A stretch of 52,200 nt of DNA, counting the filler, from Bipalium vagum (taxonomy: Eukaryota), in NCBI GenBank assembly GCA_037834085.1. It is 3 parts of 3 records of this genome, joined end to end, with 100 filler letters (N's around TTAATTAATTAA, not from the genome) between each part and the next. Parts side by side here need not be neighbours in the genome. Positions count along the whole stretch, not along the records: positions 16,099 to 35,631 come from JBBMKC010000866.1; 2 more parts are not named here. The stretch is one strand, 5' to 3'. Positions 4,067 to 28,537 of this stretch are shown here, piece by piece. The notes beneath the pieces are model-generated. The model was given only the letters and a program-made list of their open reading frames with translations. It was not told where the DNA came from and did not search any database. The first letter of the stretch is position 1. Every line of letters begins with the position of its first letter. Both the position numbers and the translations under genes were made by a program.

Positions 4067-4175
4067 CTGCATTTAAAGATCAGAAATGTGACCATATATA
4101 TCTTTAAAATCAATGAAAGATTGAAAATAATAATGATAATAAATAATATTTATCTAAGAAAAACATTTTTTTCTA

Positions 4176-5057
4176 CAAGATGTTCGATAAGTCTATTCAT
4201 AATTTATTTTTATTATTACTTCCAAAATGAAAAGGTTTACAATAAATGATTCATGCGTAAAAAGTAATTTGAATACTGACGTTTAATTTAGTCTAAGTAA
4301 AACATTTGATTATTTGTTTTAATATCGATAAAGGTGTTTTTATAAATTTCAGAATGTTGACCACAGAAGAAAGATTTTTTGTGTGTTTTGAATCTCATAC
4401 CTCAAAATTAGTAATCTTAGTTCAACGGTTTCCGGTTGTGTGAATAGTCACAACTGCATCTTATGGGTTCATGAAAATCCGGGAAACATCCAAGAATATT
4501 AGCAAAAGTCAATGTTTGAATAGCGATGTCTTTCAACAAATTAATTGGTCTCTACTTTTTGCCACCAGACTCTGAAATCAGAAAATTATTTACAGATGCT
4601 CCAAGATTATTTTGTAACTACCCTTAAAATCCATAGAATTCTGAGAAAATTATTTTTCCAATAAGAATGAGCACCTCAACATTGGACTATGGCACTAAGT
4701 TAATTTCTCAATGATTGGGGTGAGATTCAATTATTTGGGTTTCCAGGAGTCCAGATATTTTCTTGTGGGGTTATCTAAAGAACATTGTCTATCATAACTC
4801 TATATTCACCACTAATGAATTGAAGAAAAGACTTACTGACGCCTGCTTTGAAATAAACAAATCAATGCTGAGCAGAGTAGTGAGAAATTGCACTCTTCGT
4901 TTCATGTTATGCAAAGACAAAATGAACATCATTTTGAATACACTTTATGACAACATAAGCTGTAGTTATTGATAATGTAAATAAAAAAATTAAATGCTTC
5001 TTTTTTTATAATATTTACAAATTCTTAAAATAATGCATAGACTTATCGAACACCTTG
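4176..5057 (+). mobile_element. Non-autonomous Tc1-like element with both TIRs and TA TSD
   Basis: TIRs CAAGATGTTCGATAAGTCTATTCAT / ATGCATAGACTTATCGAACACCTTG flanked by TA. Relic WGYLKNIVY...ELKKRLTDAC. Confidence 0.85.
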
Positions 5058-5502
5058 TACATTATGTAAAACTGTGAAACTTTATTTAATAAAATCTATA
5101 ATTATATTAAGTTCTAAGAAAAAATTAAAACGATCATTAAAACAAATAATTAAAAGAATTAATTTGAAATTTTATAAATTTTTGATTAAGTGTCAATAAT
5201 AAATAATTAATATCCTGAATTGAATTTATTATTTTAAGAACTCAGGGAATTTAGGAATTCTCTGTTCTGTCACAGAAAATTGAAACTTCCCAATTGATCT
5301 CTTGCAATTGTTTAAATGGATAGTAATACAAAATCTGAATAATAATAAACTAAAAAATAAATTTTATTTCTTTAAATTATAAGAGATTTTATTTAGAATA
5401 AAATATCAGTTTATGATAAATATAATTAATTATTCAATGGATGAAAATTTTTTATTTCATAAGAAATTATTAAATAAAACCAGCAAAAATTATTATTGAG
5501 GA

Positions 5503-5556
<54 letters not shown>
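5503..5556. repeat. (AAT)n microsatellite
   Basis: Pure AAT tract. Confidence 0.95.
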
Positions 5557-5576
5557 TTAACCACAATGATCTAATA

Positions 5577-6297
5577 CAGGGTGGTCATCCGAAAACCGGG
5601 AAATTTAAAAAAAATTATTGTCATTATACATTCAATTTCATTATTTATCATTTCATAATTATTGATTTTTTTAGATAGCTTATTTGATGCGAGAAGGAAA
5701 AATATTATCAGATTTTGGGAGACAAGTAATAAATTCTGTTTAAGACGGAAAATCCTACATGGGAATTAATAAAATGTTCAAAGGTGTTACCTGATTTTTT
5801 TGGAAAGGTTACCAAACACAAATTTAATAATGCCGTTGCATGTTTTAAAGCAAATCTGTTACAAATTATCCGGAAAAAAAGAATAGGATCCCATAACCGA
5901 GTTTCTGATGAGAAACGTGAAAATGTGAAGGCTTTAGCTTTATCACCAGTTCGTCTGGAAAATAGTGAAAGGAAGCACTTGAGCCAGCAAGTAATATCCC
6001 GGGAACTGGAAATATCAAAAAATCTGTTTTTAATATCATGAAACAAAAGAGGCTGAAGTGTAAAGAGAAAAGTCCAATTTCCTCACTCCACAGCATAAAA
6101 TGATGCGCATGAATAAGTCCCAGACACTAGCTAATCGTTTTGAATAAATGGATGCTTGGCAACGGAAGCTCTAATCCCACGGTTAGAACAATGTCATGCT
6201 GCGCAAGGAAGCAATTTTGAACATTTATGAAATTCATGTATATTTGTAGTAAATAACAATTTTTTTGAAATTTCCCGGTTTTCGGATGACTACGCTG
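5577..6297 (+). mobile_element. Non-autonomous Tc1-like element with both TIRs and TA TSD
   Basis: TIRs CAGGGTGGTCATCCGAAAACCGGGAAATTT / AAATTTCCCGGTTTTCGGATGACTACGCTG with TA on both sides. Decayed transposase N-terminus and C-terminus (RLEQCHAAQGSNFEHL). Confidence 0.9.
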
Positions 6298-6559
6298 TAT
6301 TATCAAAGTTTGTTTTTAAAGATTTCTATGAACTTTGTAATTTTTAAACTTAGTGAAAGCACAGAATCTTAATTATTAAATATTGACTTTTAGTTACTGC
6401 AAAGATATTTTATTTAGACTATTTAAGTGAATTTGGATGGATACAAATTTGAAAATAAAGATATTTAGTTGCGTAAAATATTCAGTTTCAATAAGTAAGC
6501 AAGTTAAAAAAATTTTTAATTTATCTAATGAAAATGAAGTTTCAGGTTGAATAAGTTGA

Positions 6560-6880
6560 GGATCTTCGACAAATATTATTGTTCGAGTATAATCAAGGAG
6601 CAAAAGCTAAGAGGCCGCTAAGACTATATGTTCAGTTTACAGTAAAGGTGCTATCAGCAAAAGTAAGACTATTTCTCGATTCGTAAAGTACAATTTCGAA
6701 TTTAGTCTAGTACAGCGTTCCGAAAGAAGATCTGATGTGGATTAAGACTACCTAAATCAATCTTTTCAGGAAAATTCTCGTCAAATGACTTCCGAATTGA
6801 TAAATAAAATTGGTATAGATCAAGCGACCACTGTTCGACATTTGCATAAAATGGAGAAGGTGCAAAATGGATATCTCAAG
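6560..6880 (+). mobile_element. Degenerate mariner N-terminal fragment
   Basis: Relic ..SRQMTSELINKIGIDQATTVRHLHKMEKVQ, resembling the second mariner HTH/GKV region. Confidence 0.55.
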
Positions 6881-7855
6881 TTATTAGCAACTCTTTGGTT
6901 ACCCGCCATCACTCTTCTGAACAACAGTATCAGTCTTTTTAATCTAATATTTTATCAACACTTACATTTCCTTACAGATTTATCTTCATTTCTTTTCAAC
7001 ATATGTAAATAACCCAAATGATTCTGAGCATATTACAGATTATGGTAAAGATAAAAACACTCAATCAGAAACCTCTAAGGAAAAATGTGTATAAGGCCTG
7101 AAATTTTCATTTAAAGATCAAAAATTGTTTTTTAATTACGTTTATTTTTATTTTAAAATAAATAAAAGTCAAATAAATTATTTATATTTCTATAAATAGT
7201 AACCAATGAAATGCTTTAGAATAAATAAATTGAGATATTAATAATTTTCTCTTTTTGAGAAGCACCGGTCAAACCGACAGTGAGGGAATGTTTTTACTCT
7301 CTCATTTTATTTTGAAAGTCTGTGTGAAGATGTAATCAGTGATTTATTTTCTATTGTCTTTTTATTCAATCCATAACAAAAGGTTATTCACTAAAGTCAT
7401 TTGATAAAAAATACATTTTTCAATATTACCCGAGCAAATTCTTTTATTATTGGCAGATAAAAGAACCAGTCTACTATAGATTTTAACAGTTTCTGTATTA
7501 TTTCCCGAGTTTCTTGTCCCAAGATTTTTAAAAACATTTATTTCATAAAATTATTTGAAAGTATTTTTATAATCATTTATTTTTTTATTATCATTTTATA
7601 CCATTATCTTGAAAATAAAAATAATAATAAATAAAATAATTCGAAAACGATTTGAATAAAAATACACCAACAAAAATATCAAGTGTAGCAGCGGGATTAA
7701 TAAAAGAATTTCTTATCTTTGGCAAAGGAGATTTAATTAATATATTAACGAATATATTACGATTTATCTGTGATGACAGAATAATATATACTGGTAAAAT
7801 GCAAATATGATTTCTGATAACAATATTCTAGACATAGGTTTTGGTATTGATTTTA

Positions 7856-8520
7856 CTAGGTTGACCGGAAAGACTGCATATTTAGTTATAATTTCACATT
7901 TTTATTTTAAAGTAAATTACATTTTGTTTTGCGAAGAGTTATATATTATTTTAAAGCGTGGTTCTCATATAACGTAATATTATTTTAAAATTTTGTTAGA
8001 TTTAATTTTATTTTAAAGATTTATCCAGTTTGAAATGAATGAAGATAAAATAGCATTTATTGCACTTATGTGCCATTATTGGAAAAAGAGGAAAGTGAAA
8101 AAGCGGCAGCCGAACAAATTTGTGAAGTTGAAGGTATATGTATAGTCAGTCGAAATACCGCAGCAATCTGGCTGAAATGATTCAACAAAGACGAAACCAG
8201 TCTAGTTGACAAACCGCAACCAGGTCGCCCATCAGACTTCGATGAAGAGGCATTATGCATCGCCTTAGAAAAAATCTTATTCAAGTTGTAGAAAATTGCA
8301 ATAAGAATTGCCATTCCTAAGTCTATAAATATTTAATTTACCTGAATTATGAATATAAAGGACCAAGACAAGATCCACATCAATTGACAGTCGCACAAGT
8401 CATAAAACGAATTGAAATCTGCAATCATTCCTTCAAAAACAAGTTGGCAATAGATTTAGGAAAGAATTGTTACGTGCGATGAAAAATGGATACATTCATC
8501 AATTTAGAGAAGTAGTTTTC
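7856..8520 (+). mobile_element. Mariner 5' half (TIR + decayed transposase)
   Basis: TA+CTAGGTTGACCGG terminus. From 8035 it reads MNEDKIAFIALMCHYWKK..AAAEQICEVEG..W..F..DKPQPGRP, and later RIVTCDEKWI. Confidence 0.8.
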
Positions 8521-8599
8521 CATGGGGTTAAAGAAGGAGGGATATAGTGGAAGAATCATTAGCCTAGAACTTGAATCTTCAAATCTTAACTTTCCTTCT

Positions 8600-9381
8600 T
8601 TTTGTTTGTGTGTCAATTTAAAATGATTGAACGATTAATTTCCTAGTTTTATTTGGAACTGTCATCATGAAAAAATTAGAAAATTTTCATTTGAATACAA
8701 AAAAGTTTATACATTACAAAACCATTAGTAATAAATCTTTTTGAACAAACTTGAAATGTCGTGTCCATAGAAAAAAAATCAGAATTGTTTTGTAAAAGCT
8801 AAATTTATTCTTCACGATAAAACAAATGAAATATAAGAAGTTGATGATGATGAAGAAATTAAATTTCTCTGGCAATTTTTAAGAGAGGTTAATGAAAAAG
8901 ATGATCAAATTAGCTTAGACGATAGATATATCTCACTAGATCAACCGATAGCTACAGATGGAATACCATCTTTGAAAACATTGTTACATCTATAATAATG
9001 AATAGTATTTATGATGAAGAGAGTGAACCTGAACTAGCCACAGTTTCAAATAAAGAAGCAAGCCAGGCATGATATATTTTACAGCGTTTTTTTTTAGAAA
9101 AAAATGAGAATAACCCAGCCATTTTGAAAAAATGTTATAAAAGTGATGACATAATGGACAAAATAAGCTTGAAGAATTTGAAACAAAAAATATGTTTGAA
9201 TATCAAATAAATAAGTCGTAATATGATGTTATTTTTCTGATTATTTTAATTTTAAAATATAATCATGTATGTATAATCATGTTTCATTTTTTCCACTGGA
9301 TGATTATGTAATCAAAATTGGTAAGTATATAACGACAGTCTGACCGTTCCCGAGAGGTGTCGTTATAAAGAGGTTTAACTG
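8600..9381 (+). mobile_element. pogo/Tigger-like transposon 3' relic
   Basis: Acidic decayed C-terminal coding relic ending ..NLKQK. Terminus CGTTATAAAGAGGTTTAACTG+TA resembles pogo/Tigger TIRs. Confidence 0.5.
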
Positions 9382-9676
9382 TACTAGATAAACTTTGTTT
9401 TGTGAAAAATGTTTAAGCATTAAATATTTAAAAATGACCTATCAATTCCTTTATTTACAAAAATTGATTAAATTTATTTAACTTACAGGATTGCAAAAGC
9501 TTCAACATTCCTAAAATTATAAAAATTTCAAAAAAATATTAAGGTTTGTTAGTGATTGCTGGGTTATAGGTTTTCTTAATTGAATTCTATGAAAAAGAGC
9601 TTAAAAATAACAACGATTGTTTAACACGAAACTAATTTTTTCAAAATTAACATGCAGGATTAAAAAGTATCAGATC

Positions 9677-10865
9677 AAAAGTAAGTATCAGATTTTAAAA
9701 TGTATTATTGTTAAATATACTTAAGATAGCACTGTAAGTTTCGACACATTGAAATAAATATATTAAGTATTAATATTTTTCAACAGAACATCAATTAATA
9801 TTAGGTTGTCCGGTATGAAATTGCGGATTTTCAATATTATTTTAAAAAGTCAAAAACAGCTTGTAAATAAATTTTATTAATTAAAAAATGTCCCATCGCT
9901 TTTGACAAACTGTTGCCATCGGGATAATAACAATTTAATTCCTTTTTGGCAAAACTCCTAACTTCTTGAATCTAAAAATTGAGCGATGTCCTTTTCGATG
10001 GCACCTTGGTCCTGGAAAAGTTTGTTAGCCAGAAATGCATCCATATGCTTGCACAGGTGGTAATCTGTAGGTGACAGATCTGGGGAATAAGCTGGATAAG
10101 GCAAAACTTCGTACTGTAAGTCATGTAATTTTTGTAAGGTCACTTTAGAAACATGTGGTCTTGTATTACCATGAAGCAAGATCGGTCCCTTTCGGCTTAC
10201 AAGACCTGGCTGTTTTGAATCAGCTTTGTGTGCATAGCCTCAATTTCTTGACAGTATGACTGTACGGTAATCGTTTCATCTGATTTCAAGAAATTGTAAT
10301 GTATAAGCCATCCTCAGACCACCACACAGTTATCATAGTCTTCTTGAGGTGAAGGCTTGGTTTAGACATGGTTTTCGGCTTCTCATCAGTATTTAGCCAT
10401 TGCGCTGATCGTCTCCGATTGTTGTACACAATCCACTTTTCATCGCATGTTATAATACGAGACAAAAAGGGATCAATTTGGTTCCGATTGATTAATGACG
10501 AACAGATTTGCAAGCGATATTTTTGTTGATTTTCTGTTAAATCATGGGAAATCCATGAATTAAGCTTCTTAACCTTACCAATATTAAAACAGTGCTGTAG
10601 TCGAAGATTAAAGAAATTCAACATTTTTAAACATTTGTGGTGATATTTTATCCGCCTATTTTTCGACAGCGTCTGTCAGATCCTTTTTCTTCTTTGGTTT
10701 TCTTTTATAAGCCTTTGTCTTTATATATCCAAAAGAAAGATCTGATGATCTCACAGTTCAATGGAATAACGCTTATCCAAAAATCCACCTTTGGTGAATG
10801 TAGTGTTCAAAAAATTCTAACTTGAATGGAGTAATCTGCAGAGCTACCAGTCCTGACTGAAAAAT
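9677..10865 (-). mobile_element. Tc1-like element (same family as 2470-3185) split by a nested mariner; host parts 9677-9800 and 10582-10865
   Basis: Both halves align by eye with 2720-3170 (YKRKPK..LTDAV..RLQHCFN|IN*CSVEKY*; AAAATCTGATACTTACTT terminus). Confidence 0.75.
9801..10581 (-). mobile_element. Mariner (DD34D) transposon, 5'-deleted and frameshifted
   Basis: Motifs IGKVKKLNSWISHDLT, IITCDEKWIVY, LHGNTRPH and YSPDLSPTDYHL. 3' TIR TTAGGTTGTCCGG next to TA. Confidence 0.92.
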
Positions 10866-11141
10866 AATTTTGATGTTGTGGTATGAAGTAAGACTTCAGC
10901 ATGTTTAAGCAGTTTGAACCATTAAAATTTTCATAAAAGGAAAAAGAAACTATAAACACGTCGCATCGATTTTTTTTCAATTTTCATGAATCTACATGTG
11001 ATTATATTAACTTATTAAAGCTTAGATAAAATGTTCAAAAATTCTATTTTCATAAAAAAGTGGCTTTAAATAGACTTTAAAAACAACGCGAAACATTTAT
11101 TTTTTGTGTTGTCTTAAAACATGGGATTTATATATCTCTAT

Positions 11142-11300
11142 NNNNNNNNNNNNNNNNNNNNNNNNNNNNNNNNNNNNNNNNNNNNNNNNNNNNNNNNNNN
11201 NNNNNNNNNNNNNNNNNNNNNNNNNNNNNNNNNNNNNNNNNNNNNNNNNNNNNNNNNNNNNNNNNNNNNNNNNNNNNNNNNNNNNNNNNNNNNNNNNNNA
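11142..11300. other. Assembly gap (N run)
   Basis: Ns. Confidence 1.
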
Positions 11301-12121
11301 AATTTTACCGGAATTTTGTTTTTACTTGTTATTAATATAATTAAAAAAAAGGGGAAATTATGTTAATTATTTCTTACTAAATTATATTAATTTTTTATAT
11401 CAAGTAGTTTTATATCCACAATTTTATTTTTATCATAAAAAGTAAATTGTCACAGCACGAGATCTTCAATTCTTAATTGTTTTAATTTATAACTTACATT
11501 AATTATTGATTTAACTTCGTTTAATTATTTTGTTATTAACTTTTTAACGTTATTATAATTGACATAAACTTATGATTCTAAAAGTAAGAATTCTTACGTA
11601 AAAAGGATCCTATTTACAAAAATGATTTTTTAAAAGTAAATATTTAAACAAAAAAATCAAATATTAACTTAAATTTAATTATAAACAAATATTGGAAAAC
11701 GTCACTGGGGCCATTAATAAAATATCTTTGTTCATAGATGGATTGTTAAATAAATTAAATCGTGGACAATATTTTTCATTTGACTTATCCTCCAATTTAC
11801 TGTCCTGCTTCGAAATTAAACGAAGGATCCAATCTTTTCGGATGACCACCACTCATAAAATTTACATTGAGACAAATCGAATTAATTTTATTTATCATAA
11901 ATCGAAAGACATCCAATTTTGTTTAAAATGCCTTTTGAAAAAGTTTAATTAATTTTTCAATTTGAAATGAGATTAAGATAATTAGTAATGGGAATTAATG
12001 TTTCATGGAAGATTCAGATGATCACCAAGGGTCATGGAGTACTATATTTAAAAAAATTATTTCTTTTCATAAATAGTAATCATACAAATATGACTCTATT
12101 TTACTGTATTGTAGATATAAA

Positions 12122-12124
<3 letters not shown>

Positions 12125-12166
<42 letters not shown>
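12125..12166. repeat. (AAT)n microsatellite
   Basis: AAT tract; explains the poly-Ile in ORF 11988-12230. Confidence 0.95.
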
Positions 12167-12168
<2 letters not shown>

Positions 12169-13879
12169 TGATGATAAAGCAGAAAAATTTTGCCTGTGAA
12201 TGGGTGAAGCAAAGAAAAGGAATAGCTTAACAGAATGACGACGTCAGACCTCACATAAGCTTAGGGAATTTTTTGTTTGAGATGTGATGCAATATCAGGT
12301 TGGCTAAGAGGTTCTTGGAATTAATTGTGATTAAACTAAACAAAAAAATTTAATCCAAAGGGTACTAATCTTCGTTCTCTATCACATTTTCCATCTTTAG
12401 GGTATATTTCTGATATTATCCTCATATAAGGTCGCATGATTAAAAAATATTCTTTAATTTCAATATAATTTTTAAACTGCATGTTACCACTGGAAATCGC
12501 AAGTGCTTTAAACAGGAGCGGTTGACAAAATTTCTCATCAAATGCTGCGCATATCAACTGTAGTGCATCTATGGCACTGATGCTGCTCTTAAAATGAGAG
12601 AAAGGGGTGACAGACGAGTCTTTTATATAATGCACAATTTTGTCCGAAATTTGATGATTTTTGATTGATTATTCTGAATTTGAGTGACATGATGACTTTT
12701 TATCCATTTAAATAATCGTTTTTAGTTATATGTTTTCATATTTACATTTGCTTACATCCCAAATGATATGAAATTCTACGAACTTACTATCCAACTATAT
12801 CAGCACGATCTACGTCCATAGAGTTTTTACTTCCCCCACAACATTCATAGAATTGCAGAGTTTTCGATTTATATATTATATATAATATATAAATATATAC
12901 GACGCCGATTTCTGATGTTAATATTGATGAAATGAACCAATGTTTCCAATCTGTGTGATGGGTGAAAATATCCAGATGCACCGTTCATTTTCAGAATATA
13001 TATTTGCTCTGGAATTATCGAGTTTAAGAGTGCTCCCTCTTCAACTTACTTACGCTTAATTAAATGGTTAACCTATTTTCCCTATATCTAATTATGGTGA
13101 AACTAAATACCACTTAACTTTTATCCTGAGCTTTTCTATCTCAAAGCTACTATTATAAATAAAATTTTAATATCTTCAGAATCTTCGTATCATAAATATT
13201 TATTATTTATATTAATATTATCATTTATTTATTTAATCAATAATAATAATTATTCTGCTGTAAAAATATTTTTCTTTTTATTTGATCCCAATATATTTAA
13301 TGTTGATGGTAATTCTATTTTCCAGCCAATTTTCAGAGTTGACTCTTATTTGCCTGGACTCAAGAATACAAAGCGCAATCTGTTTTTGAGGTACGATGGA
13401 TATTCTTCACAATCACAGTGGCTCTTGATTTTAGGGGGGGAAGGAATGAAAGAATTCTATTAAATAATAATTTTAGCTGTTTTTCGGAATTCCCTGAATC
13501 TTCAATTCCTCTTTTATCTTGAACCAGTTATGTATACGACATTATAGACCATCTGCCAAAGAATATTCACCTGTATAAACTGGCCATCATACTATCATGT
13601 CATACATTTTTTCTTGTTAAGATTAAATTTGCAATAAAAAAGACACAAAAAGATGTATTTTTCATAATATTCGGCAAATTATATCCATCTCGACGCCACC
13701 ATGGTCTCGGGAATCATGTCAAATGCATCAATATCAAGAAAAGTGTTTTCCTAAAATGAAAATAGTTATAGAATTTTATTTGAACCGGACTTTTAATATG
13801 CAAGGGTTGAAGAGTCTGTGTCCAGTATGAAATGTCGTATTTTAGCAGTAAATAAAATAAGACAAAATATTGGTAAATA

Positions 13880-14140
13880 AAATTTATTAATTAGAATATT
13901 TGCCATTACTGTCTAAACAATCTTGCCAAGGTTATAAAAGTTAATTTATTCCAATTTGATAAATATCCGGAGTTCTGGATTCAAAAAACTGGGTTATGTT
14001 CTTTTAAATGGAAAACTTGGTCGCAGAAGGTTTTTTTGACAAGCAAATCATTCGTGTGCTTGAACAGATGATAATCAGTTGGTAACTGGTCTGGGGACTA
14101 AGGTTGATGAGGCAAAACCTCATACTGCAAGTCATGTAAT
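13880..14140 (-). mobile_element. Mariner C-terminal fragment
   Basis: LHDLQYEVLPHQP*SPDQLPTDYHLFKH, close to the copy at 9958-10179. Confidence 0.8.
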
Positions 14141-15006
14141 ATTTATAATTTCGTATATTCCTCGAAAATTCAAAAATATAACAATTGAAAATTCTATTTA
14201 ATAAATATTTTTCTGCCAATTAATAATTTCTGTGCCAGACTTTTCTATAACCATAAATTATTTCTGATGAAATGAAGAATTAAATTCACAAAAAATATTT
14301 TAAAAATAGATTTAAAATGAAAATTAATGAGCTTGAATTTGATTGGTTAAAAATGTAAACTTAAATCCAAGAAAAACGAATTTTGAAAAATTTCTTAAAA
14401 AATAATATAACATAATAAATAAAAAAAGAAAATATTCTCTTTGGGTTTTGGTTGGAAAATATGAAATAATAGATGCCCAATATTATAAGAAAAATAAAAA
14501 AATAATGAAATAAATATTAATAATTATTTAAATTTAATTCCAGAAATTTGTGAACAATGGGAGCAAAAATAAATATTTTTCAGAATTTTATTATATATTT
14601 AATAACTTTCTTAAATTTAAAAATAAAAAATATTTCATTTTTAAACATGAAATATTTTTCGAAACATAAAAAACGGTGGCAGCAATTTTTACTTTCGTAA
14701 AGAAAATCAAAATAATTTCCCTGCATGGAAATCTTTGCATGTGTCAAATGATTTAAAATTATAAAAATATTTATTTTTCAGATTTAAAACAGATTTTTCT
14801 GAATTTTACAAGTTACTTGAAATAATATTAATGGGAAAAGATTTTAATTTTAACACATTTATAATTAAGGAACGAAATTAGACCGTTTCTGTTAGAAAAT
14901 TAACAATTGGAAATTTTTTTGAAGAAAAGAAAAATACTCAAATTTCAACGTTACTGAAAAATAATTTGTGAAAAAATAATTTAATATTAAAACAACAATT
15001 ATTTGT

Positions 15007-15166
15007 ACTTCTTAAATTATGCTCTTGACAGAGATAATTGACTCCCCTCTGAAGTCTTTCGCTGTCCAAAGTGAACTCCCAAATTATTTTGTAAAATTGT
15101 ACGTTTTCGCATCTGATGCTGACCTTTGCTTTCATACAATCGAGAACTTTGATGTGCCACTTAGAC
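15007..15166 (-). CDS. Candidate internal exon of an unidentified gene
   Basis: CCAG acceptor and GTACAA donor around the open frame SKWHIKVLDCMKAKVSIRCENVQFYKIIWEFTLDSERLQRGVNYLCQEHNLR. GC content is raised and no TE motif was recognised. Confidence 0.3.
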
Positions 15167-15926
15167 CTGGGTATAAATAAAATGGTAAATTATTTTATGA
15201 GAATTTATAATCGACTTTTAATTTCTTAATAAAAAGTTTTCATCATTTTAATAAAAATCATCAATACAGTGATCAGTTTTAAGATTTCCAAATATTTCGA
15301 AATATCAGATTAACTAAGTTTTAATAAATTTTAACACGAATCTTTAATCTAACATAATTAAACAAAGAACATATTCAAAATTGTTTATTTATAGGATATA
15401 CACTGATGACTTTTGGTACTTTACTTATATTCAATGAAAATCAATGATAGTTAATCCCCAATGGCTGACAAATCAATTTATCTCGAGAAAGTCTGCGCAT
15501 TCTTATCCTATACGATTTCAAAAGCAATATAAACATAGCCACACAACATGTAAAATATTTATTTACAAAAATATGAATCAAAATGAAACATTCGCATTAC
15601 ACAGGGTTGACATAAGTAAATAGACCCCTAAAAAGACATTAAATTTTTACATTTATTTATTGAATTACAATCATTACATTTATTTGTTAACATTTATGGA
15701 ATCTAAAATTAACTAATAACTGAATTTATTAACACGGTAAAACTAATGACCAAGTAAGAAGGAAAATTTGAATAATAAAAATGAAAAGATAAAATCATTA
15801 GATATAATTATTTCTTCAAATAAAAGAGAAACCGAAATTGGAAAATATTTAATGTATTGAAGATTGTTAAGAAAAAAAATTGAGAAGACTTTCAACTGGA
15901 TAAATTAGAATCTTATGAATTTAATA

Positions 15927-15934
15927 AAAATAAA

Positions 15935-15998
<64 letters not shown>
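15927..15998. repeat. (TAAA)n/(TAA)n microsatellite running into gap
   Basis: Direct observation. Confidence 0.95.
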
Positions 15999-16098
15999 NN
16001 NNNNNNNNNNNNNNNNNNNNNNNNNNNNNNNNNNNNNNNNNNTTAATTAATTAANNNNNNNNNNNNNNNNNNNNNNNNNNNNNNNNNNNNNNNNNNNN
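15999..16098. other. Artificial 100-nt contig spacer N44-TTAATTAATTAA-N44
   Basis: Identical structure at 35632-35731; the 12-mer has stops in all six frames. Confidence 0.95.
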
Positions 16099-16279
16099 AA
16101 ATATTGATTTTGTATTAATTGACTTAATTGAATAAATAAATTGATGTGGGTTAATATTTTGGTTTTTATTTCAGGGTTTTTAACATTTTGATTAGTAAAA
16201 TAATTAATTATTGATTAAATGTTAAAAATAAAATGAGAAAAATAATATTATACAAATAATAATATTATGAAAAACCAAG

Positions 16280-16419
16280 TTTTCGTAAAGATATTATTAA
16301 ATTTAAAAAATCTATTTATGTTTGATTTCCTCTTTTAATTATCTAAAACTTAAAATAAGCAATTTTAATTAAATTATTTATTTTATCAAAAAGGCCAATT
16401 TTATAAAAAGAATATTCGA
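16280..16419. repeat. ~140 bp repeat, inverted copy of 22906-23043
   Basis: TTTTCGTAAAGATATTATTAAAT...TTTCCTCTTTTAATTAT...CTTAAAATAAGCAATTTTAATTAAATT...AATTTTATAAAAAGAATATTCGA matches the reverse complement of 22906-23043 with few differences. Confidence 0.9.
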
Positions 16420-16737
16420 ACATTCAAACCAAAAGATATAATAAGGATAATAAACGTGTTAGAAAAATTAATTATCGTAATTCCCCTTAGTAAAATATTT
16501 GAAAAAATTGCAAACTAAATCAAATGTATAATGTAAAATGATATTTTTTCCAAATACATTACTGATTTTTCAAAGAGCATCAAGCGAGGAAATTACATAG
16601 CAGATGTAAAATTGAAAAGAAATGCGTTTAATTTGCATATAATCACCAAAACTGATGTTTTCAATCCACGAAATCAGGAAAAGTAAATGATTTAATTGTT
16701 ATGAAAAAATCATCATTATCGTAGGTCCCAAGATCAT

Positions 16738-19700
16738 TTATACATCCATAAATGTACGATATAAAAACGCTCTTTTATCTTGAAAGATGGGGGTTTGCTC
16801 GTCATTTTCCTTGTGGAGTAGTCCGGTTGGCATCGATTTACTGAATTAACATTTAATATCACACTTTAATTATACTTGAACAAAATTACCATTCATCTGA
16901 TTTGTGTTTATTAAGATTACCAGGGGTATTTAGATTATATTTTGACCATAACAGCTTTTGTTTATACATTAATTGGTTATAGCTACTTTTTCTATAAATG
17001 TCTCCTTCGTCATGAATTTCCGATTGAATTAGCTTTTCTAAAACATCTTCCAATGTGATTATTCCGGTAACCTAATAATAACAATTCTCTTATTTTCATT
17101 TTTATGAATTTTATGATCGAAATAATTAACGTATAACTAAAAAAACTGATAAAGTACATCAAAATATTATCATCTATCATTTATAATAATTTTAATTCAT
17201 TCCCTTTTTTTTTTAATTTTTTCCCAATTTAAGTTTTTTTCTTGTTTTTATACAATCTAATGTAATTTAATGTAATCTAAATTTTCTTCAATTAAAAGTC
17301 AGACAAACAAATATTATTTAATCCAATTAATAATTAGTACAATTTAATTAACTAAAAATATTTAAATTTCTGAAATTTGACTCTTAATATTTTTCGAATT
17401 AATATTTTTCAACTGCTATGGCTAACATTCTTTTTTAATATAAATTCCATTTGTTGTTATTATTGAAATATAAAGACATGAAATTAAAGATTAGTTATAA
17501 AAAACATACTGGAGGATAAACTGAGGCCAGGTTTGAGGAGTTTTCCATTTTTGTAATTGTGTAAAATCTTTCCAGTGCCTCTACTTGCTCCTTGCCGATA
17601 TTATCTTTCACCACAACCGCCATATGTCCAGCTAGTGATATATTTGTTATAATCCATAATCAATTAAACCAATAATAACTTTTTCCAGTTTTAAAAAGCT
17701 GTAATAGTTCATAAAGAGGAGTCGTTTCTGTGACATATCTTAAAGGCTGAAAACAGTTTCTATTTTCAATTATGGTCTTGACACTGGTTCTCTCTAAAGG
17801 ATTGAATTGAATCAACATTTTTGTCAATATAATGCCTCGAATTAGGCGTTTTTCTGATCCCTGGTATACAGGAATTCTGGAATGTGCCATATGCAAAATC
17901 TAGAAAGATATGATTGAGCAAGTACACACCCCTTTTTACTAATATTTACTTCTTGAATTATATCGTCATTCAATATAGTGTCATCTGATAACATAAACAC
18001 GTTATTCAATGGTACCTGAGCATCTTTTGCTGTCATCATCGTTAAGTCCATGGCGCCCTAAATTTTAAATATTACAACTTTTATCATACGAGCGCAGATT
18101 TTTAAAATTAATATAAATATATCTTTCAGTGTATATATATGAACAGAATGTGACAATTTTTATATAAGCTTTGTGGTTTTCAAATAAAGTAAAATATTCA
18201 AAGTATTCCGTTGAGTTTATTATACATGAAACCTGAAAGTTTGAAAATGTCTCTTAATGATATTCTATGAAAATTATGCAACATATTTTTATTCGAAATT
18301 AATTCATCAACATTGTGAAAATAGCATCATCAGCATTTTAGAACATCATTCTCGAGCAAAGGGTTGCAAAATGTTAAAATGAAGTTGTTTCATGAGATGT
18401 CTCATGACAGTGAACCGCCACATTCCTCAAAAAACAAACTTTGACATCACTTGAAACAAAACTTCAGTTAAATTTTGAAAAAAAATTATTTTAACATCAA
18501 TTAAAACCTGCTTATAACTAAAGTAGGAAATAAATCGGAAGAATGAATTTAGAAAATTATAATAAATTTAAAAGATATCCTTAGAATTAATGGGAAACGT
18601 TGTAATGAGAATTGATATGCTACATCTCATAAATGACAATTACATGAGAAATATTTTTTTCATTTCATTCGGTCAAAGGGTCACATTTTATTCTCGTGAT
18701 CCGTTCAATGTTTAACAATCATTAGGTTTGAATGCATGATCTCCAGACCACGTTTCATTCAAAACTAATTGCATCACTTGGTCTGTCATTCAGATATGAA
18801 AAATATTTTCAATATCGATGTCTCAGAAGTGAAAGTACATTTTCTTTCACATTTATCATGTTATTTATATTTACAAAACAATTATTTTTTTTTATTTTTT
18901 TAATTCCTTTCCATCTTAGACAAATTTGATTTACAAAAACCTTGGATCGAACACAAGGAGACATTATTTCAGTGAGCTTTTTGAGTTAGGCTTTTTAATT
19001 TACAAAATATTTTTTCGATATATATTTTAAAAATATTTAAAATAATTACGCTTTTATTTTTGATTGACAATTTTATTTCATATTTTACATTTTATTCAAA
19101 ATATATTTTGCAAAATATTAAATTCATAAATATTAATTATATTAATTAATTAATAACCGAAATATTTGTATAAAATAAAGAAAAATATAATTGTGTTAAA
19201 AGAAAATCTATTGAAGAAATATAAAATAGTGTAAATCGATAAATTTATTGATATTTCAATTTTTATTATTTCACTGATTTTTAATTTCAATATCATATTT
19301 ATTTCCATTCATTATTTTATACAGATAAGCCTGTTATATTGATTTGAAGAATTCTTTTACATTATACTACCATTATTTTGATGATGGCATCTATACAATA
19401 TCACTTATTTGGTTGTTCGAAAAGTCACTTCACTTTTTTTATACGTTTTTTTTAATCTTAATTTAAAGCATTTAAGTCATTTTAAAGGTTGGGATATTCA
19501 ACTGCTTGATAGATGGCAGAAGGTCTTGAAAAAAAAGGACAATACATCATTGATTAAAATATTTATTTTTAATAAAACTTTTGGTCTTACTTTTTACTAA
19601 AAAACTCGAAGTGACTTTCCGAACAACCAATAGAATAATTCAATAAAACTGTTTTGAAATTTTTTTATCTTACTTTGATGATGTTTACTTCTTGAATCGA

Positions 19701-20751
19701 CAGCTGATTGTCATTGAACTTTTTATCCTGGTCTTCACAATCTACTTATGATTAATTATGAACGAAAATATTTAATAATAACGATTAATAATTTTACTTG
19801 ATATACTTTCTTGTATTTCACCCTTTTTCTTATAATTAATATCGTCATTATCCTCTGTCCTGACAAATACACCTGATGGACCATGTAAGTCAATTAATGC
19901 TTTCAGCTGTGGACGTCTATAATAACTTCCATTCTCATGACCAAACATTAAGTCAAGGACTTTAGAAAGAGGATAACTTATAAATATCGTAATACCCATA
20001 AGAAAGTAAACTATCCTAATCAAAAGATGTTAAATAAATTAATTTCAAATTAATAACATTTTACTTACGGTCTCATATAATAACCAATGGCTAAGCCATA
20101 TCTTTTACAGAGTGCTTGTGGAATGATCCTAGAAATTCATAATTATTAAAACATGTAAGTTTGTTAATTCAACAGACGTTTTATAATAGTTACATAAAAT
20201 AATTATTTAAATGTTTTAAATATATAAACCATACTTAAATTACAAAAAATATTTTAAATATTATAAATTATTTAATTATCAAGTTATTCTTACTCGCCGA
20301 ATATTAAAATAGCCGAGATTGAAACAAGAATCGCAGTGATCGGGTTAGAAATGCGGTCCAGAAATATTGGCATTGACTCCACGCAAGCAGCATTTCCCAG
20401 AAGAAGAGTAACTAGTAATATATGGTGCCTTTTAATTATTGGATATAGCCTTTCAGCATATTTTGCTTCGGGTTCAATACCACCTTTCATTAATATTTCC
20501 AAACTTAGTGTATCCAAGCTTAGCAAACCAAGAGTTAATCCAGACATTGTTCCTGTATCACAAAATTTACCATATTAATTTTAAGGAAAAGACTCCTTAC
20601 CTGCACCCATAGTCAAGAGTATATATATACCCAAATAAATCCAAAAATAATAATCATGAATGTCGAGAGGGCTTTCTGGTTTAATATAGTCTGTACCATT
20701 GCAAATTATTTTTTCTGGATCTGTTAAGAAACACCATATATTCTCTATCAT
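16738..20751 (-). CDS. CNNM/DUF21-CBS domain metal transporter, short (Mam3-like) form, ~496 aa. Exons 20751-20601, 20552-20294, 20128-20069, 20015-19798, 19741-19674, 18057-17950, 17899-17680, 17631-17510, 17071-16890, 16840-16738
   Basis: Hallmarks GTMSGLTLGLLSLD, HILLVTLLLGNA, FGEIIPQALC, IIKGAMDL, HSRIPVY, GHMAVV and GIITLEDVLEKLIQSEIHDE. All nine GT-AG introns join in frame (1491 nt). The start ATG at 20751 is the least certain part. Confidence 0.92.
19409..19630 (+). mobile_element. Mariner-derived MITE in CNNM intron 5
   Basis: TIRs TTGGTTGTTCGAAAAGTCACTTC / GAAGTGACTTTCCGAACAACCAA. Retains the transposase C-terminal relic LLDRWQKV. Confidence 0.85.
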
Positions 20752-21763
20752 TAAAATAGACAATAGACAATAATTTATGTTAACATCATAAAGTTTTCCA
20801 GTCAATTTATACTTCAGGGTTAAGTGCAAATTACCAATCGATTTAAACAAATAAAATTTTGAAAATTAAGAACTACTTATTTTTTTACTGAGTACTTTGG
20901 ACTTTGAAAAAATTTTAAGTTAATATTTAAATTAATATTAATAATTTTCTTCGGTTCATAAAAAATGCGGTATATATATCAGAAATATTTAAATTTCAAA
21001 TAACTTGCCAAATTAGTTTCGATACAAATTCAAAGGGAATTTTAAAAATTATATGAATAATATTCTTTTTTTCTTTCTATAACTTTGTTGTTTATGCTCC
21101 TATGTTGTATCACATGTTGCTTGTATCATAACCAAAATCTCAATCTCAATTCTTTGTTATCAATATATAATAAGCCTTTAAATGAAAAAAAATGTTATAC
21201 AAATAAATTTATATTTAAAAAAAATAACAAAAAATTGATAAAAAACAAAAAAGTCAATTTTTCTCTTAAAAATCGAAAACAAAAGAAAGGATTTAAATAA
21301 ATTATCCAATCTGGAAATAGATAAAATCGAAAACAAAATTTCCACAAAATAAATATGATGAAATATTACAGAGAGCAAGTGAAAATAATATCAAAGATAA
21401 AGATTTTAAAATTTATGAGAAAGATTTAATGTGGATAATAAATAATTCAACTGATCCAAAACATAAAAATTTATAAAAATAAAATAGAAGAAAATTAATA
21501 TATTCTAATGAGTATGAAATAAATTAAATTTTAGAATTTTACAAAAAAAGATTAATAACATTTTTAAATAAAAATTAAATATTAAAATTTCAAAATCAAA
21601 TTTTTAAATAAAAAAATAATTGAGAAAATAAAAGTCTTCATGAAGATACAATAAAACATGAAAAAAATAAACAACGGAAAAACAAAATCGTCGACAAAAA
21701 CAACGAATAATAAAAATGAAAATAAATTTTTAAATATTCAAGAAAAATATCACATTTTTACTC

Positions 21764-22200
21764 AAAATCGGAGGTGATATTCAACGATCTATTACAAATA
21801 ATAAAGTTTTAAATAAATTTACGATAGGAAAATATCCAGGAGAATTTCATTTAAAATACTTGAATAAAACAAATCCTGTACACCAATTTACGGGGTCCAG
21901 CTCGCATATTAATAAACGTTTAGAAAATTATGAAGAAATAAAATATAATTATAATGCAACAAGAGAATTAAATATTCTCTCACTTCCAAAACCTGAGTCT
22001 ATTCCATAACTCGAGTTGATAATAAGAGCAATGAAACATGATGTAAAATATATGTCAACAAATTTAAAAAATCGTCATGTTGTGATGTAAAAGTGATACA
22101 TGAAATGAACAATGTTCAAAAGTAAACTTCAAGAGAAAAACTTGAAAAAGGTTGAGTAAAATTAATAATGAAGAGCAAGGTTGCTCTAGGAGCGGCATGC
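21764..22200 (+). pseudogene. Polinton/adintovirus-type PLA2-like (PLA2X) gene relic
   Basis: KIGGDIQRSI..KYPGEFHL..HQFTG(PG)SHINKRL..P(I)TRVDN-AMKHDVKY..LKNRH..REKLEKG*VKLIMKSKVALG. This fits the parvovirus-like PLA2 motifs (GPG Ca-loop, HD..Y) with small indels. Confidence 0.75.
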
Positions 22201-22272
22201 CGCTGAAATCAAAAATCGCATTTAATCTTGGTCTACGAAAAGTAACAAAAAATTTTATAAAAATTCAGAAAT

Positions 22273-22460
22273 ATGAAAAAAAGTAAAATTCTTTCAAGTG
22301 AACTTCATAAAGAATTTAGAAAAACTAAACATTTTTAAAAGTAAACGTTTTTAACAAAGATGACATTTGGTCGGCAGATCTAACCTTTGTCCCAGGAGAA
22401 AAATATTATAAAATAATTCTAACAGTAATTGATTTATATACTCGTTTTGCTTTTGCTGTT
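22273..22460 (+). pseudogene. Polinton/Maverick rve integrase N-terminal relic
   Basis: MKKSKILSSELHKEFRKTKHF/(frameshift)KVNVFNKDDIWSADLTFVPGEKYYKIILTVIDLYTRFAFAV, i.e. the ELHK...DDIWSADL...ILTVID signature. Confidence 0.85.
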
Positions 22461-22905
22461 ACTGATATTGAATGCTGAAATCTAATTACAAATAATTTTT
22501 AATTACTAATAAATTCAACTAATAAATTTAAATTATAGGCCGTTGAATTAATATTTTTCTTTTGTACTCTCACATCCTCATTTTTGGGAATTTATTGTAT
22601 TTACTACAGCCTGACCTTTCAAATTCAACATGTTAAAATTTAGGTATTATAAAAATTTTGCAGGGTCTCTTTAAGTACATATATTAATTAAGAATATCAA
22701 TCTATTAAAATTTATAAAACTTAACTTATGCATATTTACATAAATATTGTTTAAAATTTTTTTAGATGTATTAATCAATTTTTAATTTATTCCTGATCCT
22801 GAATATAGTGAAGAATTTATCATAAAATATACCAATTCGAAAAAAAAGCATCCGAGATATTAGTTACAATTTTTTATATTTTTCTAATTAAGAACGAAAT
22901 TTTAA

Positions 22906-23043
22906 TCGAATATTCTTTTTATAAAATTAGTCTTTTTGATACATTTTAATTTAATTAAAATTGCTTATTTTAAGTTATATATAATTAAAAGAGGAAATTA
23001 AACATAAATAGATTTTTTTAATTTAATAATATCTTTACGAAAA
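22906..23043. repeat. ~140 bp repeat, inverted copy of 16280-16419, ending ~40 nt upstream of the ESD ATG
   Basis: Direct reverse-complement match. Confidence 0.9.
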
Positions 23044-23084
23044 TTAGTTAGTTTTACTGGACATTCGAAGTAAGAATTTTAAAT

Positions 23085-24321
23085 ATGGAAGAAAAGTCGT
23101 GTGTTAAAGTCTTTGGTGGCTTACAAAAGGTTTTTTCCCATTACAGGTTTATTATCTATTTTCCAATAAAAAATTAAGTGTGAAGTTTTCTTAGTAATGA
23201 ATGTAATTGTGTTATGACTTTTGCTATATATTTACCAGAAAATTGTAATAATGAAAAGTTCCCTGTTATTTATTGGTTATCAGGTTATTAAAGTTTTTGA
23301 ATTATTTGTATTTTCAAATATCAGGTTTAACTTGTAATGAGCAAAATGTGATAACAAAGTCAGGAATTCAGCAGGCTGCCTCTAAATTAGGATTAATTAT
23401 TGTTTGTCCTGATACAAGTCCAAGTAATACTTTCAGTTTTTATACAATATTTGATAAAAATTAATATCAATATGTATTTTTGTACTAAAATTTAAATAAA
23501 AATAAATGGAATTATAATTAATTGAAAAAATCTGTGCGGGGTGGATTAATTAAATCAAAATAATAATTTTTAGGGGGCGAGGGTGTACCCGATGATTCTG
23601 ATTCCTATGATTTTGGGATGGGAGCTGGGTTTTACATTGATGCTTGCAAAGAGCCATGGAATAAGAATTTCAGAATGTATTCTTATATCACAAACGAGGC
23701 ATTCATTGATGTTATAATTTATTAAAGCTCACGTCGTTTTTAGTTACCGAATCTAATCGAAAGCAATTTCCCTGTTATTCCGAATAGACGATCGATCATG
23801 GGACACAGGTATTCTTAACTCCTTATTACCATTCATAATGTTCATACTCTCAGTATGGGCGGACACGGTGCTCTTATTTGTGCTCTGAAGAACCCGGACA
23901 GATATTTGAGCGTTTCGGCATTTGCTCCGATTTGTAATCCAAGTCAATGTCCATGGGGGGTCAAAGCTTTTCAGGGGTATTTCGGGGAAGATAAGCAAGC
24001 CTTGTGGAAACAATTTGATGCAGTAGAACTGATAAAATCGGGACATAAAGTTGCAAATCAAATCCTGGTTGATCAGGGAGATTGTGACAATTTTCTGTCT
24101 CAGAAACAGTTGTTACCCGAAAATCTGACTAAGGTTTGTGAGGAAAATGGTATCGAATTAACTTTTCGGATGCAAAAGGTATGCTATTTTGGATCAATTT
24201 CTCAATTGAATAATTTTGTGTTCAGGGATATGATCATTCTTATTTCTTCATTGCAACGTTTATTGCATCCCATTTGGAATTTCATTCGAAAATATTACAG
24301 GGCAATGGATCTGGGGATTAG
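23085..24321 (+). CDS. ESD: S-formylglutathione hydrolase (esterase D), ~286 aa. Exons 23085-23146, 23195-23283, 23325-23423, 23574-23698, 23744-23808, 23854-24178, 24226-24321
   Basis: [52 protein letters not shown] (nucleophile elbow), SAFAPICNP and GYDHSYFFI. Exons join in frame (861 nt). Confidence 0.97.
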
Positions 24322-24699
24322 TGTTTTGTATTTTTAGTTTTATTAATTTCACAATCAATGATTAACGTTGAAATCTGGTGTGTATTAACATTTTTGAATA
24401 AACAAGATCTTGTCTGAAATTTTAAAAAATTCCCGTTACTGAATATTAATATTATTTAACTAATATCGTTTAACATTTTGTCTTTCATTTGAGTTTTTTA
24501 AATATTGGTTTTATTATAAAAAATTATATTTATAAAATATAATTTATTCTGTAAAAAGAAAACGTGCAATTTTAAAAAATTCTTTATTAATAAAGTTATG
24601 TAAATATGATTTAAAGTATTTTATAAATATTGATAAGAGAGTCTAAGGAATATGTTTTCCGAAATGAGAAGCCATCTAAAGTTTTGTGTTTAGGAATTT

Positions 24700-26249
24700 C
24701 GCATCGTAAATGTGCCAGTGTCTAACAGGCATTCAATATTTTTATCTTGTATTGTCAATGTCACGCTTGGCCTTGCATTTTATCAAATGATATTCCCTCT
24801 TGTCGGTATTCTTCGATTGTCATCAGGCTTTGATCTTCAGCATGATCTTCTTTCTGTTCCTTATCAGGAGATTTTCAAAAATCTGATAGCTTTTCCTCAT
24901 GAATGTATTCCGCCCTGTTTATACCCATCCTCTCTTCCACACTCCCACCATCTGCCACTGCATATCCGTTTCCCTCTTCTACGTCATCTGCTAACCTACG
25001 GGAGTAAACATTTCTGTTTAATAGACTGCCCCGACTACCTCCACTTCTGTCAAGGCCGAGCCATTTGGGTGGTCTATGAGATTGAGTCTCTCTGTAATAC
25101 CTTCATTCTTCTAGTGGGTCCGACATATTCATTATCTTGTGCCATGTTCATTGTATTGACATACCCTCCCCGTCTAAATAAATTAGTATTTTCTCCAATG
25201 TTTCGATATCCATTGTCCGCATCGTAGTTCCTGAAGTTCAATTTCTTATATGGCTCTCTTTCATACTTTCTTTTTCATAAAACAGTCTTTCTCTTCATGT
25301 CCATTTTTGTTGCATCTTCTACAATGAGCTTCCGTACAGAATCTTCTAATGTGTCCTTCTCTGCCACAAGCGTAACATCTTCTGATTTTCTTCACTGGGC
25401 ATACTCTGCTGATGTGTCCTTTTTGATTGCATGACCAGCATTCTATATTTTGTCTGTTATTCTTTTTTCCTCTTCTTCCTGGCGCGTTCCTGTATGTTGT
25501 CAAGGATGAATTATTCATTGAGCTTAATCGCTGAGGTTCGTTAATGACTGCTCCCCTGTAACTTCTAATGACATTAATCGTCCCAACTTCCCTGTCTAAG
25601 AGCTTAAGAGTTTCCACATTTTCTGAAGTGTCTAATATTTTTCTCATTTTAACCTCTCTTCAAATTTACATTCTCCGCACAATGCAACAAGAATTCTTTC
25701 TTGAGGGCTTCTTCATTCAAATCATGTGCCAATATTCTTTTCACCATCCTTTCAATCTTCTTACTGAATGTCTCAGCATCCTTTGAGCCTTTCTTGTATC
25801 GCAGAGCTTCTTCTAAGTCTTGTATTAAAGACTTTGGTTTTCCAAATGCTTTTCGAAGCCTATCCTCGAATCCACTGACTTCTTTTTCCGTTTTTCATAG
25901 ATATCGATGAGATCTCTGTCCAATAGGCCTTTACCATGATTTCCCTTTTCTTTTTGTCCATTTTAGAAGCGTCGAAAAATCTCACACAGTTTGCAATAAA
26001 TTCTTCCAGATTGTCATTTTTCCTAAATGTCTCCGGCATTAATCAGCTTAATAACAGATCCGTATTTGGTGTGGTCACCATGTTAGCTACGGCTATTTCA
26101 TTTTTTATGTCTTAAATCATATAAAAATAAGTACGCTTTCAAAATGTATTTCAAAACAACTTATCTTCCATCAACCGTATTATTTAAAGAACAAATGAAT
26201 TTGAATTGATTTTTTAATATTATTAATAATCCTCACACAGATTATTACA
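24700..26249 (-). mobile_element. 3'-truncated Gypsy-like LTR retrotransposon: putative 5' LTR (26249-26081), PBS, frameshifted gag with three CCHC knuckles, start of protease
   Basis: TGTAAT...CTAACA then TGGTGACC. Gag ATG at 26039. Knuckles CWSCNQKGHISRVC, CYACGREGHIRRFC and CRRCNKNGHEEKDC. IECLLDTG aspartyl-protease motif at ~24715-24740. The LTR outer boundary is inferred. Confidence 0.85.
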
Positions 26250-26547
26250 GTGATGTCTTACTTGAAACTCGAAGTAACCGACGCAAGCCTGGGAACCAGG
26301 ATTTTCACAAATATTTAGACATAGATAAAATGAATCTAATAGAATAATTTATGAAACCATTTTATTAAAATATTTTATGTAATGTGAAGTTTTAAAATAC
26401 TTTTTGAAGTTTTATATAATGTTATTGATTATAAATTCTGCATTATGTTTTAAATATTTCCTATTGGTTTTCTTGTTGACTGTTAATTTCTCATTTGTAT
26501 TCAATTCTAATTCTTTTTCATTATTTTTATTATCTTGTTTTTGTTCT

Positions 26548-26680
26548 AATTTATTTAAATGTTGTACTAATTTATCAGAATTTTGTTTTAATTTATATAA
26601 ATGTACTAATTTATCCAAATTTTGTCTTAATTTATTTAAACCTTGTTTTAATTTTTCTAAATTCTACTAATTTATTTTTA
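26548..26680. repeat. Degenerate ~21/39-42 bp tandem repeat within a decayed K/N/L-rich minus-strand ORF
   Basis: Recurring AATTTAT.TAAATG..TACTAATTTATC..AATTTTGT.TT; encodes DKLVH/DKLVQH/NKLEQ heptad-like units. Confidence 0.6.
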
Positions 26681-27084: not shown

Positions 27085-27185
27085 AATAAAATTGGAGGTG
27101 ATATTCATGAATCGAAATTAAATAAATATTGTTAAATAAATTTTCAATAGAAAAATATTCTGAAGAATTACATTTTAAAATCTTT
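27085..27185 (+). pseudogene. Second fragment of the PLA2X-like gene N-terminus
   Basis: KIGGDIHESKLNKY-LNKFSIEKYSEELHFK aligns with KIGGDIQRSITNNKVLNKFTIGKYPGEFHLK at 21764. Confidence 0.7.
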
Positions 27186-28537
27186 AAACCTTTTTAACAA
27201 TAAAAATTTTCTATGGTGTTCTGTTAATCATATTTTTAAAATTGTATTTGAAAAAACATGAAAAGATGTGAAGTTATATTTTCAATTGATTTTACATCTC
27301 CTATTTCAATTTTAAAAAATAATAATGATTTTGATAAATCTTTAGCATTTGCTGTTTATAATAAAGAAATTGTTAGTTTATTTAAATTTATTTCTGTTGT
27401 TGGATTTAGACAACTTTCTAAATAATCATACTTTTGTTTATAAATCTTGATGATTAATATTCTAAATTAAGATAAGTCATCTATTAATAAGAAAAAGATG
27501 TAAGAAGCTGTGAGATGAAATCTAATATTTTTTTATTTCTTAAAAATCATGTTTCAGGAATTTAATTGAACTTCAAGAGAAACTTACATGAGAGGAAGTC
27601 GAATAAATGAAAATCAGATTTGTAATACTTTTCATCTTTTAATTTATAAAAAATATTTATATTATTTTATATAACAATTTAATAAATAACCAGTCTTCTT
27701 TCTCCATAAAATGAATTAACATGTCCGAAATAATTCTATTTTTATTTCGTTTTGAAATTTTGAAAATTTTTAAAAATTTGCATTGTTTCTTAGCCTTATA
27801 GGTAATTTAAAAATAGATTATGATAAAAATAACTTACTATGTTTTTCTTTATTAAAATATTATACATTAATACATTGGCATAATATCTTGATTTTTTCAT
27901 TTATTACATAAAAAATAATTAATTCTTTCACTTTATAAATTTTATTTTTTATTCGAATTTATTCATTTCTATTATATAAAATATTAATTTCTTTCTCAAA
28001 ATTTCTATGTAAAAATTTTTTCACTTTATACATATAAGGAGTGATTTGAACAATTAGTTTGCTTTAATTTTTTAAATAAAGAACCTCACGCCTAAATTAA
28101 TGATTATTAAATTTTTTAAATTTTAAGTTTTGCCAAGACTTATTTTAAATTTAATTTCATTAATTGTTTAAACAATTATCGGGAAAAAATTTAAATTTTG
28201 GCCTACAACATTTTTGAACAGCATTACTTAGAAAATTGTATATTAAATAATTTAAACAAAGAGTATAAACCGAAGTTGAATTCAGTTTTAAAGTTTATCA
28301 AAATTATTATTTACCTCAGAATTCTATTTTAATCTAATCATTTTCTTACATTTTCACAACTTTTCGACTGACTATTTTTTATTTTATTTATTTTTCTTTA
28401 TATATTGAAATATTCGATGAAAATTATTAATCAAAATTAAATAATACTAAATTTTGAACAAAATGTAAATATTTTTTTCTATAATTTGTTATAACTTTGA
28501 AATTTCAATCCATTTTCAATTGAAAAAACTGAACATA

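Follow-up and report, generated by a model that had tools for sequence, protein, structure and literature searches.

We sought to identify the origin of the sequence that separates two divergent host genes in a 52,200-nt stretch of Bipalium vagum DNA (the window, in what follows). A first-pass annotation had placed there a hidden Polinton/Maverick relic in which a PLA2X gene is followed by an rve integrase, with CNNM and ESD genes on its two sides. The flanks were borne out, Pfam matching both families in the divergent arrangement (Table 1), where "ESD" is that annotation's own name and our test reached the Esterase family only. The gap between the two genes measures 2333 nt when taken from 20751, the first candidate ATG of CNNM, to the ATG of the esterase at 23085. 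The relic occupies 52-55% of it, counted from that candidate ATG, in agreement with the earlier estimate of over half of about 2.3 kb. A splice-donor-like site at 20834 could move the CNNM 5' end, and no convincing CNNM exon was seen beyond the relic. The start codons of the two divergent host genes are no more than about 430 and 620 nt from the relic, so a promoter common to both may have been changed by it. The surroundings hold other repeats and genes. A dispersed 140-nt repeat occurs at 22906-23043 and, inverted and 92% identical, at 16280-16419, with one copy ending 41 nt before the esterase ATG. A repeat of very high depth lies at about 19500-19630, past the last CNNM exon examined, and 70 contigs continue into other sequence at 19628. 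Further away are a gag-like relic with two zinc knuckles (25264-25894, minus strand; Pfam zf-CCHC, E 4e-10), likely a piece of an LTR retrotransposon; a cytochrome P450 (28541-30094, minus strand) in a single 518-codon open frame, apparently intronless in an intron-rich region; and mariner-type transposase relics, alike among themselves, at 9807-10675, 13819-14148 and 2876-3173.

Table 1. Features of the relic locus and its flanks (positions along the window).
Feature	Positions	Strand	Evidence
CNNM gene, 5' exons	19775-20751	-	Pfam CNNM, E 3.8e-10 and 6.9e-5 on two exons
K/N-rich repeated stretch, 575 nt, likely a decayed gene lying upstream in the same element	21183-21757	+	Depth, A-skew
Probable PLA2-integrase fusion gene, broken and 3'-truncated (whole relic gene)	21758-22460	+	Three collinear tblastn segments on single proteins
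Parvovirus-type PLA2-like domain, loop 16 residues longer	21758-22191	+	4 relatives, 46-51% identity
Linker, 36 codons, three stops	22192-22299	+	Same frame on both sides
rve integrase, N-terminal part, reaching shortly beyond the first catalytic Asp	22300-22460	+	Pfam rve; 6 relatives
Esterase gene, ESD-like	23085-24334	+	Pfam Esterase, E 3e-21; ATG 23085
Second short scrap, 5' part of the gene	27088-27187	+	76% nucleotide identity to 21764-21864 over 101 nt, E 1e-15

Judged from sequence comparison, positions 21758-22460 very probably (about 0.85) represent a dead, truncated copy of a gene in which PLA2 and rve integrase were fused, likely an internal leftover of a high-copy Polinton/Maverick. 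Frameshift-aware alignment of this interval to P0040, an intact protein, scored 277, far above chance, as 40 dinucleotide shuffles averaged 32.9 and peaked at 52. The original call of a decayed relic of Polinton type, with a PLA2 of the parvovirus kind and an rve integrase, is supported. The motifs quoted in the first-pass annotation all lie on the plus strand and are spread over three frames: GGDIQ (21770), GEFHL (21839), HQFTG (21881), SHINKRL (21902), AMKHDVKY (22028) and NRH (22070) in one frame; TRVD (22009), IMKSKVALG (22165-22191) and ELHKEFRK (22300) in a second; DDIWSADL (22359) and ILTVIDLYTRFAFAV (22416-22460) in a third. Two details required correction: where "(PG)" had been written into the calcium-loop motif the frame reads FTGSS, and the spacing from VALG to ELHK, given as about 70 nt, measured 108 nt with both motifs in the same frame. 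The gene is interrupted by six in-frame stops (22007, 22123, 22153, 22204, 22243 and 22258) and two net frameshifts (near 22080 and near 22330). In the numbering of its relative P0035 (384 aa) it stops at residue 181, shortly after the first catalytic Asp, and about half of the gene is therefore missing. The relic can make neither phospholipase nor integrase. As a transposon fossil the fragment is ordinary, and what deserves note is its fused design alone. At 22197-22223 on the plus strand, in another frame, the sequence is similar to the PLA2 end motif that directly precedes it, which may reflect a small local duplication.

The PLA2 part was identified through its relatives. The piece 21734-22195, translated with X at stops, matched four proteins among 18 candidates (E 6e-23 to 4e-17). 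Pfam gave no direct PLA2 match to the relic's own piece, while three of these four nearest relatives matched PF08398 weakly, below the cut-off; PLA2 membership of the relic is therefore transitive. The catalytic His-Asp pair is kept at 22037-22042 and the calcium-loop motif is altered. A profile search with the PLA2 part returned 21 proteins, 14 of them matching PF08398 at E <0.1 and 5 passing the cut-off; one of the 21, the repetitive 915-aa P0019, was dropped as spurious. A profile built from 30 public relatives matched 21758-22084 at E 3e-30, and because these relatives were found starting from the window, only their Pfam membership counts as independent. For a predicted model of the close relative P0010 (pLDDT 84), BFVD ranked viral PLA2 domains first, led by an entomopoxvirus PLA2-like protein and parvovirus VP1 proteins, with a best E of 7.5e-3 and none at E <=0.001. 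In a wide PDB fold search the same model found an unrelated domain best (Z 4.4) and PLA2 structures at Z 3.6, 3.0 and 2.8. PDB sequence searches with pieces of the window were empty.

Loop motif and HD are spaced 50 residues apart in the window, in six close relatives and in two distant ones among the 21 rows examined; the spacing is 34 in 9 of the 21, and 51, 44 and 42 in three others. By these alignments the long insert is the mark of a subgroup and not of this copy alone. The first-pass annotation took it as a possible mark of a divergent lineage, but the feature is not peculiar to this copy, as spacing 50 also occurs in public relatives. A tree of the PLA2 domain was poorly supported, with 1 of 18 inner branches starred. 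The same domain also occurs with other partners, namely an N-terminal protease-like region (P0023, P0027) and DUF5679 (P0021, P0028); P0027 has a weak match to Peptidase_C5, the adenovirus protease (E 0.016), and a methylase match. Contig depth falls to the level of this copy itself at 21893-21898 (22 at 88% likeness, 367 at 80%), at the single GGNCC site of the PLA2 loop; either this copy carries a local change there or many other copies are interrupted at that point. In this copy the site, at 21894, has nothing inserted in it, and as the window contains 19 GGNCC sites the presence of one here is unremarkable.

In the integrase part, the Pfam rve match of 22329-22475 (E 1.8e-4) covers profile positions 5-40 of 102 and is below the curated cut-off. 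Six proteins among 11 candidates matched the piece at 60-73% identity. All six are rve proteins and four also match PF08398; of the remaining two, one has a weak PLA2 tail and the other starts with the PLA2 end motif. None of the six is annotated as an LTR-retrotransposon or Ginger integrase, the kind of best match that the first-pass annotation had named as counting against its reading. PLA2 lies upstream of the piece, and by annotation all six matches are integrases of the PLA2-linked type.

The abundance and edges of the relic were read from contig depth, here the summed depth of contigs from one run (X1, possibly the window's own source), which is not a copy number. Bins across 21337-22505 had summed depths of 2,206-18,420, and the bin that follows had 18; on a finer scale it rose from 22-35 to 228 at 21183 and fell from 35,121 to 55 after 22463. 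This likely reflects hundreds or more related fragments of a high-copy family in the genome. At likeness of at least 88%, 1386 contigs aligned, and since 970 of these were less than 95% alike, this copy is well diverged from most. Contigs of single-copy depth cover both junctions without differences (19575-21335, and 22431 onward). Past 22460, 41 and 24 contigs continue into other sequence, which indicates that this copy was cut there. Terminal inverted repeats were not found at the relic edges, where the longest exact inverted match was 10 nt, a length reached or exceeded in 48 of 100 shuffles. Polintons duplicate 6 nt of target, and no 6-nt duplication was present at the relic edges tested. 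Absence of both is expected of an internal fragment. Rfam had no match in 20600-23200.

Upstream of the gene, summed depth over the K/N-rich stretch was 117-13,374, compared with 22-35 just before it, and its A-skew of 0.35 was reached by 1 of 1972 windows. A second contig of single-copy depth shares 21241-21335 with 11 differences. The low complexity of the stretch may draw some unrelated contigs into its depth. A protein match was found for none of 19 candidates, with no Atlas hit and no Pfam cut-off passed. The first-pass annotation had assigned 21140-21760 to more decayed sequence of the element; the repeated stretch agrees with this, but the repeat starts near 21183-21241 and not at 21140. 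About 400 nt from the second scrap of the gene (Table 1), the minus strand holds a K/N-rich open frame of 83 codons (26415-26663) that has no Pfam match and may belong to the same element.

Assignment to an element came from the relatives. Queried with P0035, the ESM Atlas placed at the top three clusters (scores 0.94-0.96; 184, 111 and 72 members) that combine rve with PLA2, and two of them also Chromo, which is found on 62% and 90% of their members; the window copy ends before that region. Preplasmiviricota is the commonest label in the three clusters, where a taxon is known for 17, 8 and 2 members only. A poor model of P0035 (pLDDT 47) had as its best BFVD match "Integrase [MELD virus sp.]" (E 3.5e-6). 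From the Atlas labels of the relatives, together with this predicted fold match, we infer that the relic is of Polinton origin. Scans of viral contigs for the neighbourhoods of relatives confirmed 0 of 128, 0 of 15, 0 of 1 and 0 of 248 candidates, and two motif scans gave 0. Among prokaryote contigs 0 of 234 were confirmed, with six chance loci matching by motif only, and phage records held no match. One metagenome locus (L001) was rejected as a relative, since it lies in a type IV secretion region of a bacterium and its motif match is due to chance.

The first-pass annotation had described two adjacent genes, PLA2X and integrase. In a tblastn search both parts fell in order on single proteins, as three collinear segments (21758-22081, 22084-22335 and 22332-22460), with summed E of 2e-28 for P0034 and 1e-22 for P0038. 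In frameshift-aware alignments six of seven proteins span PLA2 and integrase with the same two net frameshifts and six stops, at 41-48% identity over 168-218 aligned codons. Five relatives (P0035, P0036, P0038, P0040 and P0041) carry PLA2 and rve in one open reading frame, both above Pfam cut-offs. In P0034, the closest long relative, which has the same loop insert, PLA2 runs into an integrase start that is less window-like than those of eight other relatives (score 43 versus 114-160). Linkers measure 39 aa in P0034, against the 36 codons of the window, and 3-25 aa in seven other relatives, and in contigs of run X1, too, a shorter linker connects the end of PLA2 with the start of the integrase (joints from 22147-22194 to 22278-22304). 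The collinearity, the shared frame of VALG and ELHK and the fused relatives replace the two-gene description with a single fused gene. "PLA2X" is also the wrong label, because PLA2 here runs into integrase and not into a protein-X tail. In PMC8502044, PLA2X of Alpha adintoviruses is defined with a C-terminal protein-X-like domain; none was seen in the window gene, which has integrase in its place, as do its fused relatives.

Two separate genes would nevertheless account for several observations. Stand-alone PLA2 proteins exist among the relatives (P0020-P0022, P0024 and P0026), Polintons in print have separate PLA2 and integrase frames (PMC5803895; map in the supplement of PMC8502044), the linker has three stops and an ATG at 22273, and P0011, the seventh aligned protein, ends before the integrase and diverges after the PLA2 end. 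We consider this arrangement improbable, given that VALG and ELHK lie 36 codons apart in one frame, that the nearest long relative is itself fused, that four of the six best integrase matches carry PLA2 while the other two retain its weak tail or its end motif, and that no protein-X tail is present. A somewhat smaller chance attaches to the idea that the fused gene comes from a capsid-less, high-copy transposon derived from a Polinton and encoding little beyond PLA2-integrase. The very high summed depth and the presence of two scraps within 5.3 kb would fit such an element, as would the 32 short open reading frames around the scraps, in which polymerase, packaging ATPase, adenain-type protease and capsid were not recognised. 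A membrane-breaching domain, however, would make little sense in an element that forms no particle, most of the Atlas members that have a record are viral, and a Maverick expansion is reported in planarians (Dugesia) in 10.64898/2025.12.11.693146. It is less probable still that the integrase piece derives from an LTR retrotransposon or Ginger element, or that the neighbourhood is an assembly chimera. Foamy-virus integrases are the best solved-structure matches of the fusion profile (E 1e-7) and a gag-like zinc knuckle lies at 25264-25659, but the best sequence matches of the piece are PLA2-rve fusions, and the coverage of both junctions, without differences, by single-copy-depth contigs speaks against a chimera.

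Compared with known systems, this fused gene resembles PLA2X of the Alpha (Mayetiola-class) adintoviruses (PMC8502044) and "CAP" of Spodoptera Mavericks (PMC5803895) in its parvovirus-VP1-type PLA2, its His-Asp pair and the rve integrase in the same element. It differs in that PLA2 is a separate frame in those elements (in PLA2X with the protein-X-like tail), whereas here it forms the N-terminal part of the integrase frame. The closest counterparts are unnamed PLA2/rve(/Chromo) fusions (the Atlas clusters; P0034-P0036, P0038, P0040 and P0041), which have the domain order and junction motifs of the window gene. Their frames are open, several being cut by short contigs, whereas the window copy is broken and without its C-terminal half; its PLA2 loop is 16 residues longer than in most fused relatives. 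The degraded adintovirus relic on human chromosome 7 (PMC8502044) is likewise a germ-line fossil with stops and frameshifts, but it keeps polymerase, capsid and gasdermin-like pieces, while the relic studied here amounts to half a gene and the K/N-rich stretch. Full-text searches found no PLA2-integrase fusion in print. The literature they covered includes PMC3671162, PMC11131425, PMC11161782, PMC7805220, PMC11296320, 10.1101/2024.03.25.586562 and 10.1101/2023.08.22.554363; subscription papers fell mostly outside it, and figure maps or supplements could show a fusion. As sequence the fusion is not new, since by domain annotation it fills Atlas clusters of 72-184 members.

These observations suggest a possible history. 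An element bearing PLA2-rve would have entered the CNNM-esterase gap, or part of such an element would have been copied into it, and deletions and point changes would then have left about 1.3 kb. In the living element a single chain would contain both PLA2 and integrase. Its PLA2 part may help the particle to cross membranes, by analogy with parvoviruses, an aid that PMC4642659 proposes for Polinton lipases, and its integrase part would insert the DNA of the element. A candidate cut site for the element's protease is the G-x-G that is conserved where the PLA2 domain ends. Lys...G-x-G ends the domain in 17 of the 18 relatives long enough to test, GG or G-x-G precedes that end motif in 11 of 16 relatives, and no such motif occurs in 40-residue windows of the two integrase parts checked. 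Adenovirus protease sites read (M/I/L)XGG-X or (M/I/L)XGX-G (PMC4246237). Only 2 of the 17 G-x-G motifs have Met, Ile or Leu at P4, and 7 of the 17 are in proteins not fused to integrase, so that cleavage is a lead and not a result. In the window copy the G-x-G is no longer intact.

Taken further, and only tentatively, an animal Polinton lineage with hundreds of copies or more in this genome might make a PLA2-integrase polyprotein, load both activities together into its particle and release them through cleavage of the G-x-G junction by a protease of its own; a particle entering a cell could then integrate before any gene is expressed, as retroviruses do. Polinton virions have not been observed, according to 10.64898/2026.06.19.733378. 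The relic itself serves as a pointer to a PLA2-integrase fusion design that has undergone heavy amplification in this animal. Should the fusion prove to be a polyprotein carried in particles, it would bear on how Polintons enter cells and integrate, a question that intact copies elsewhere would serve better than this relic.
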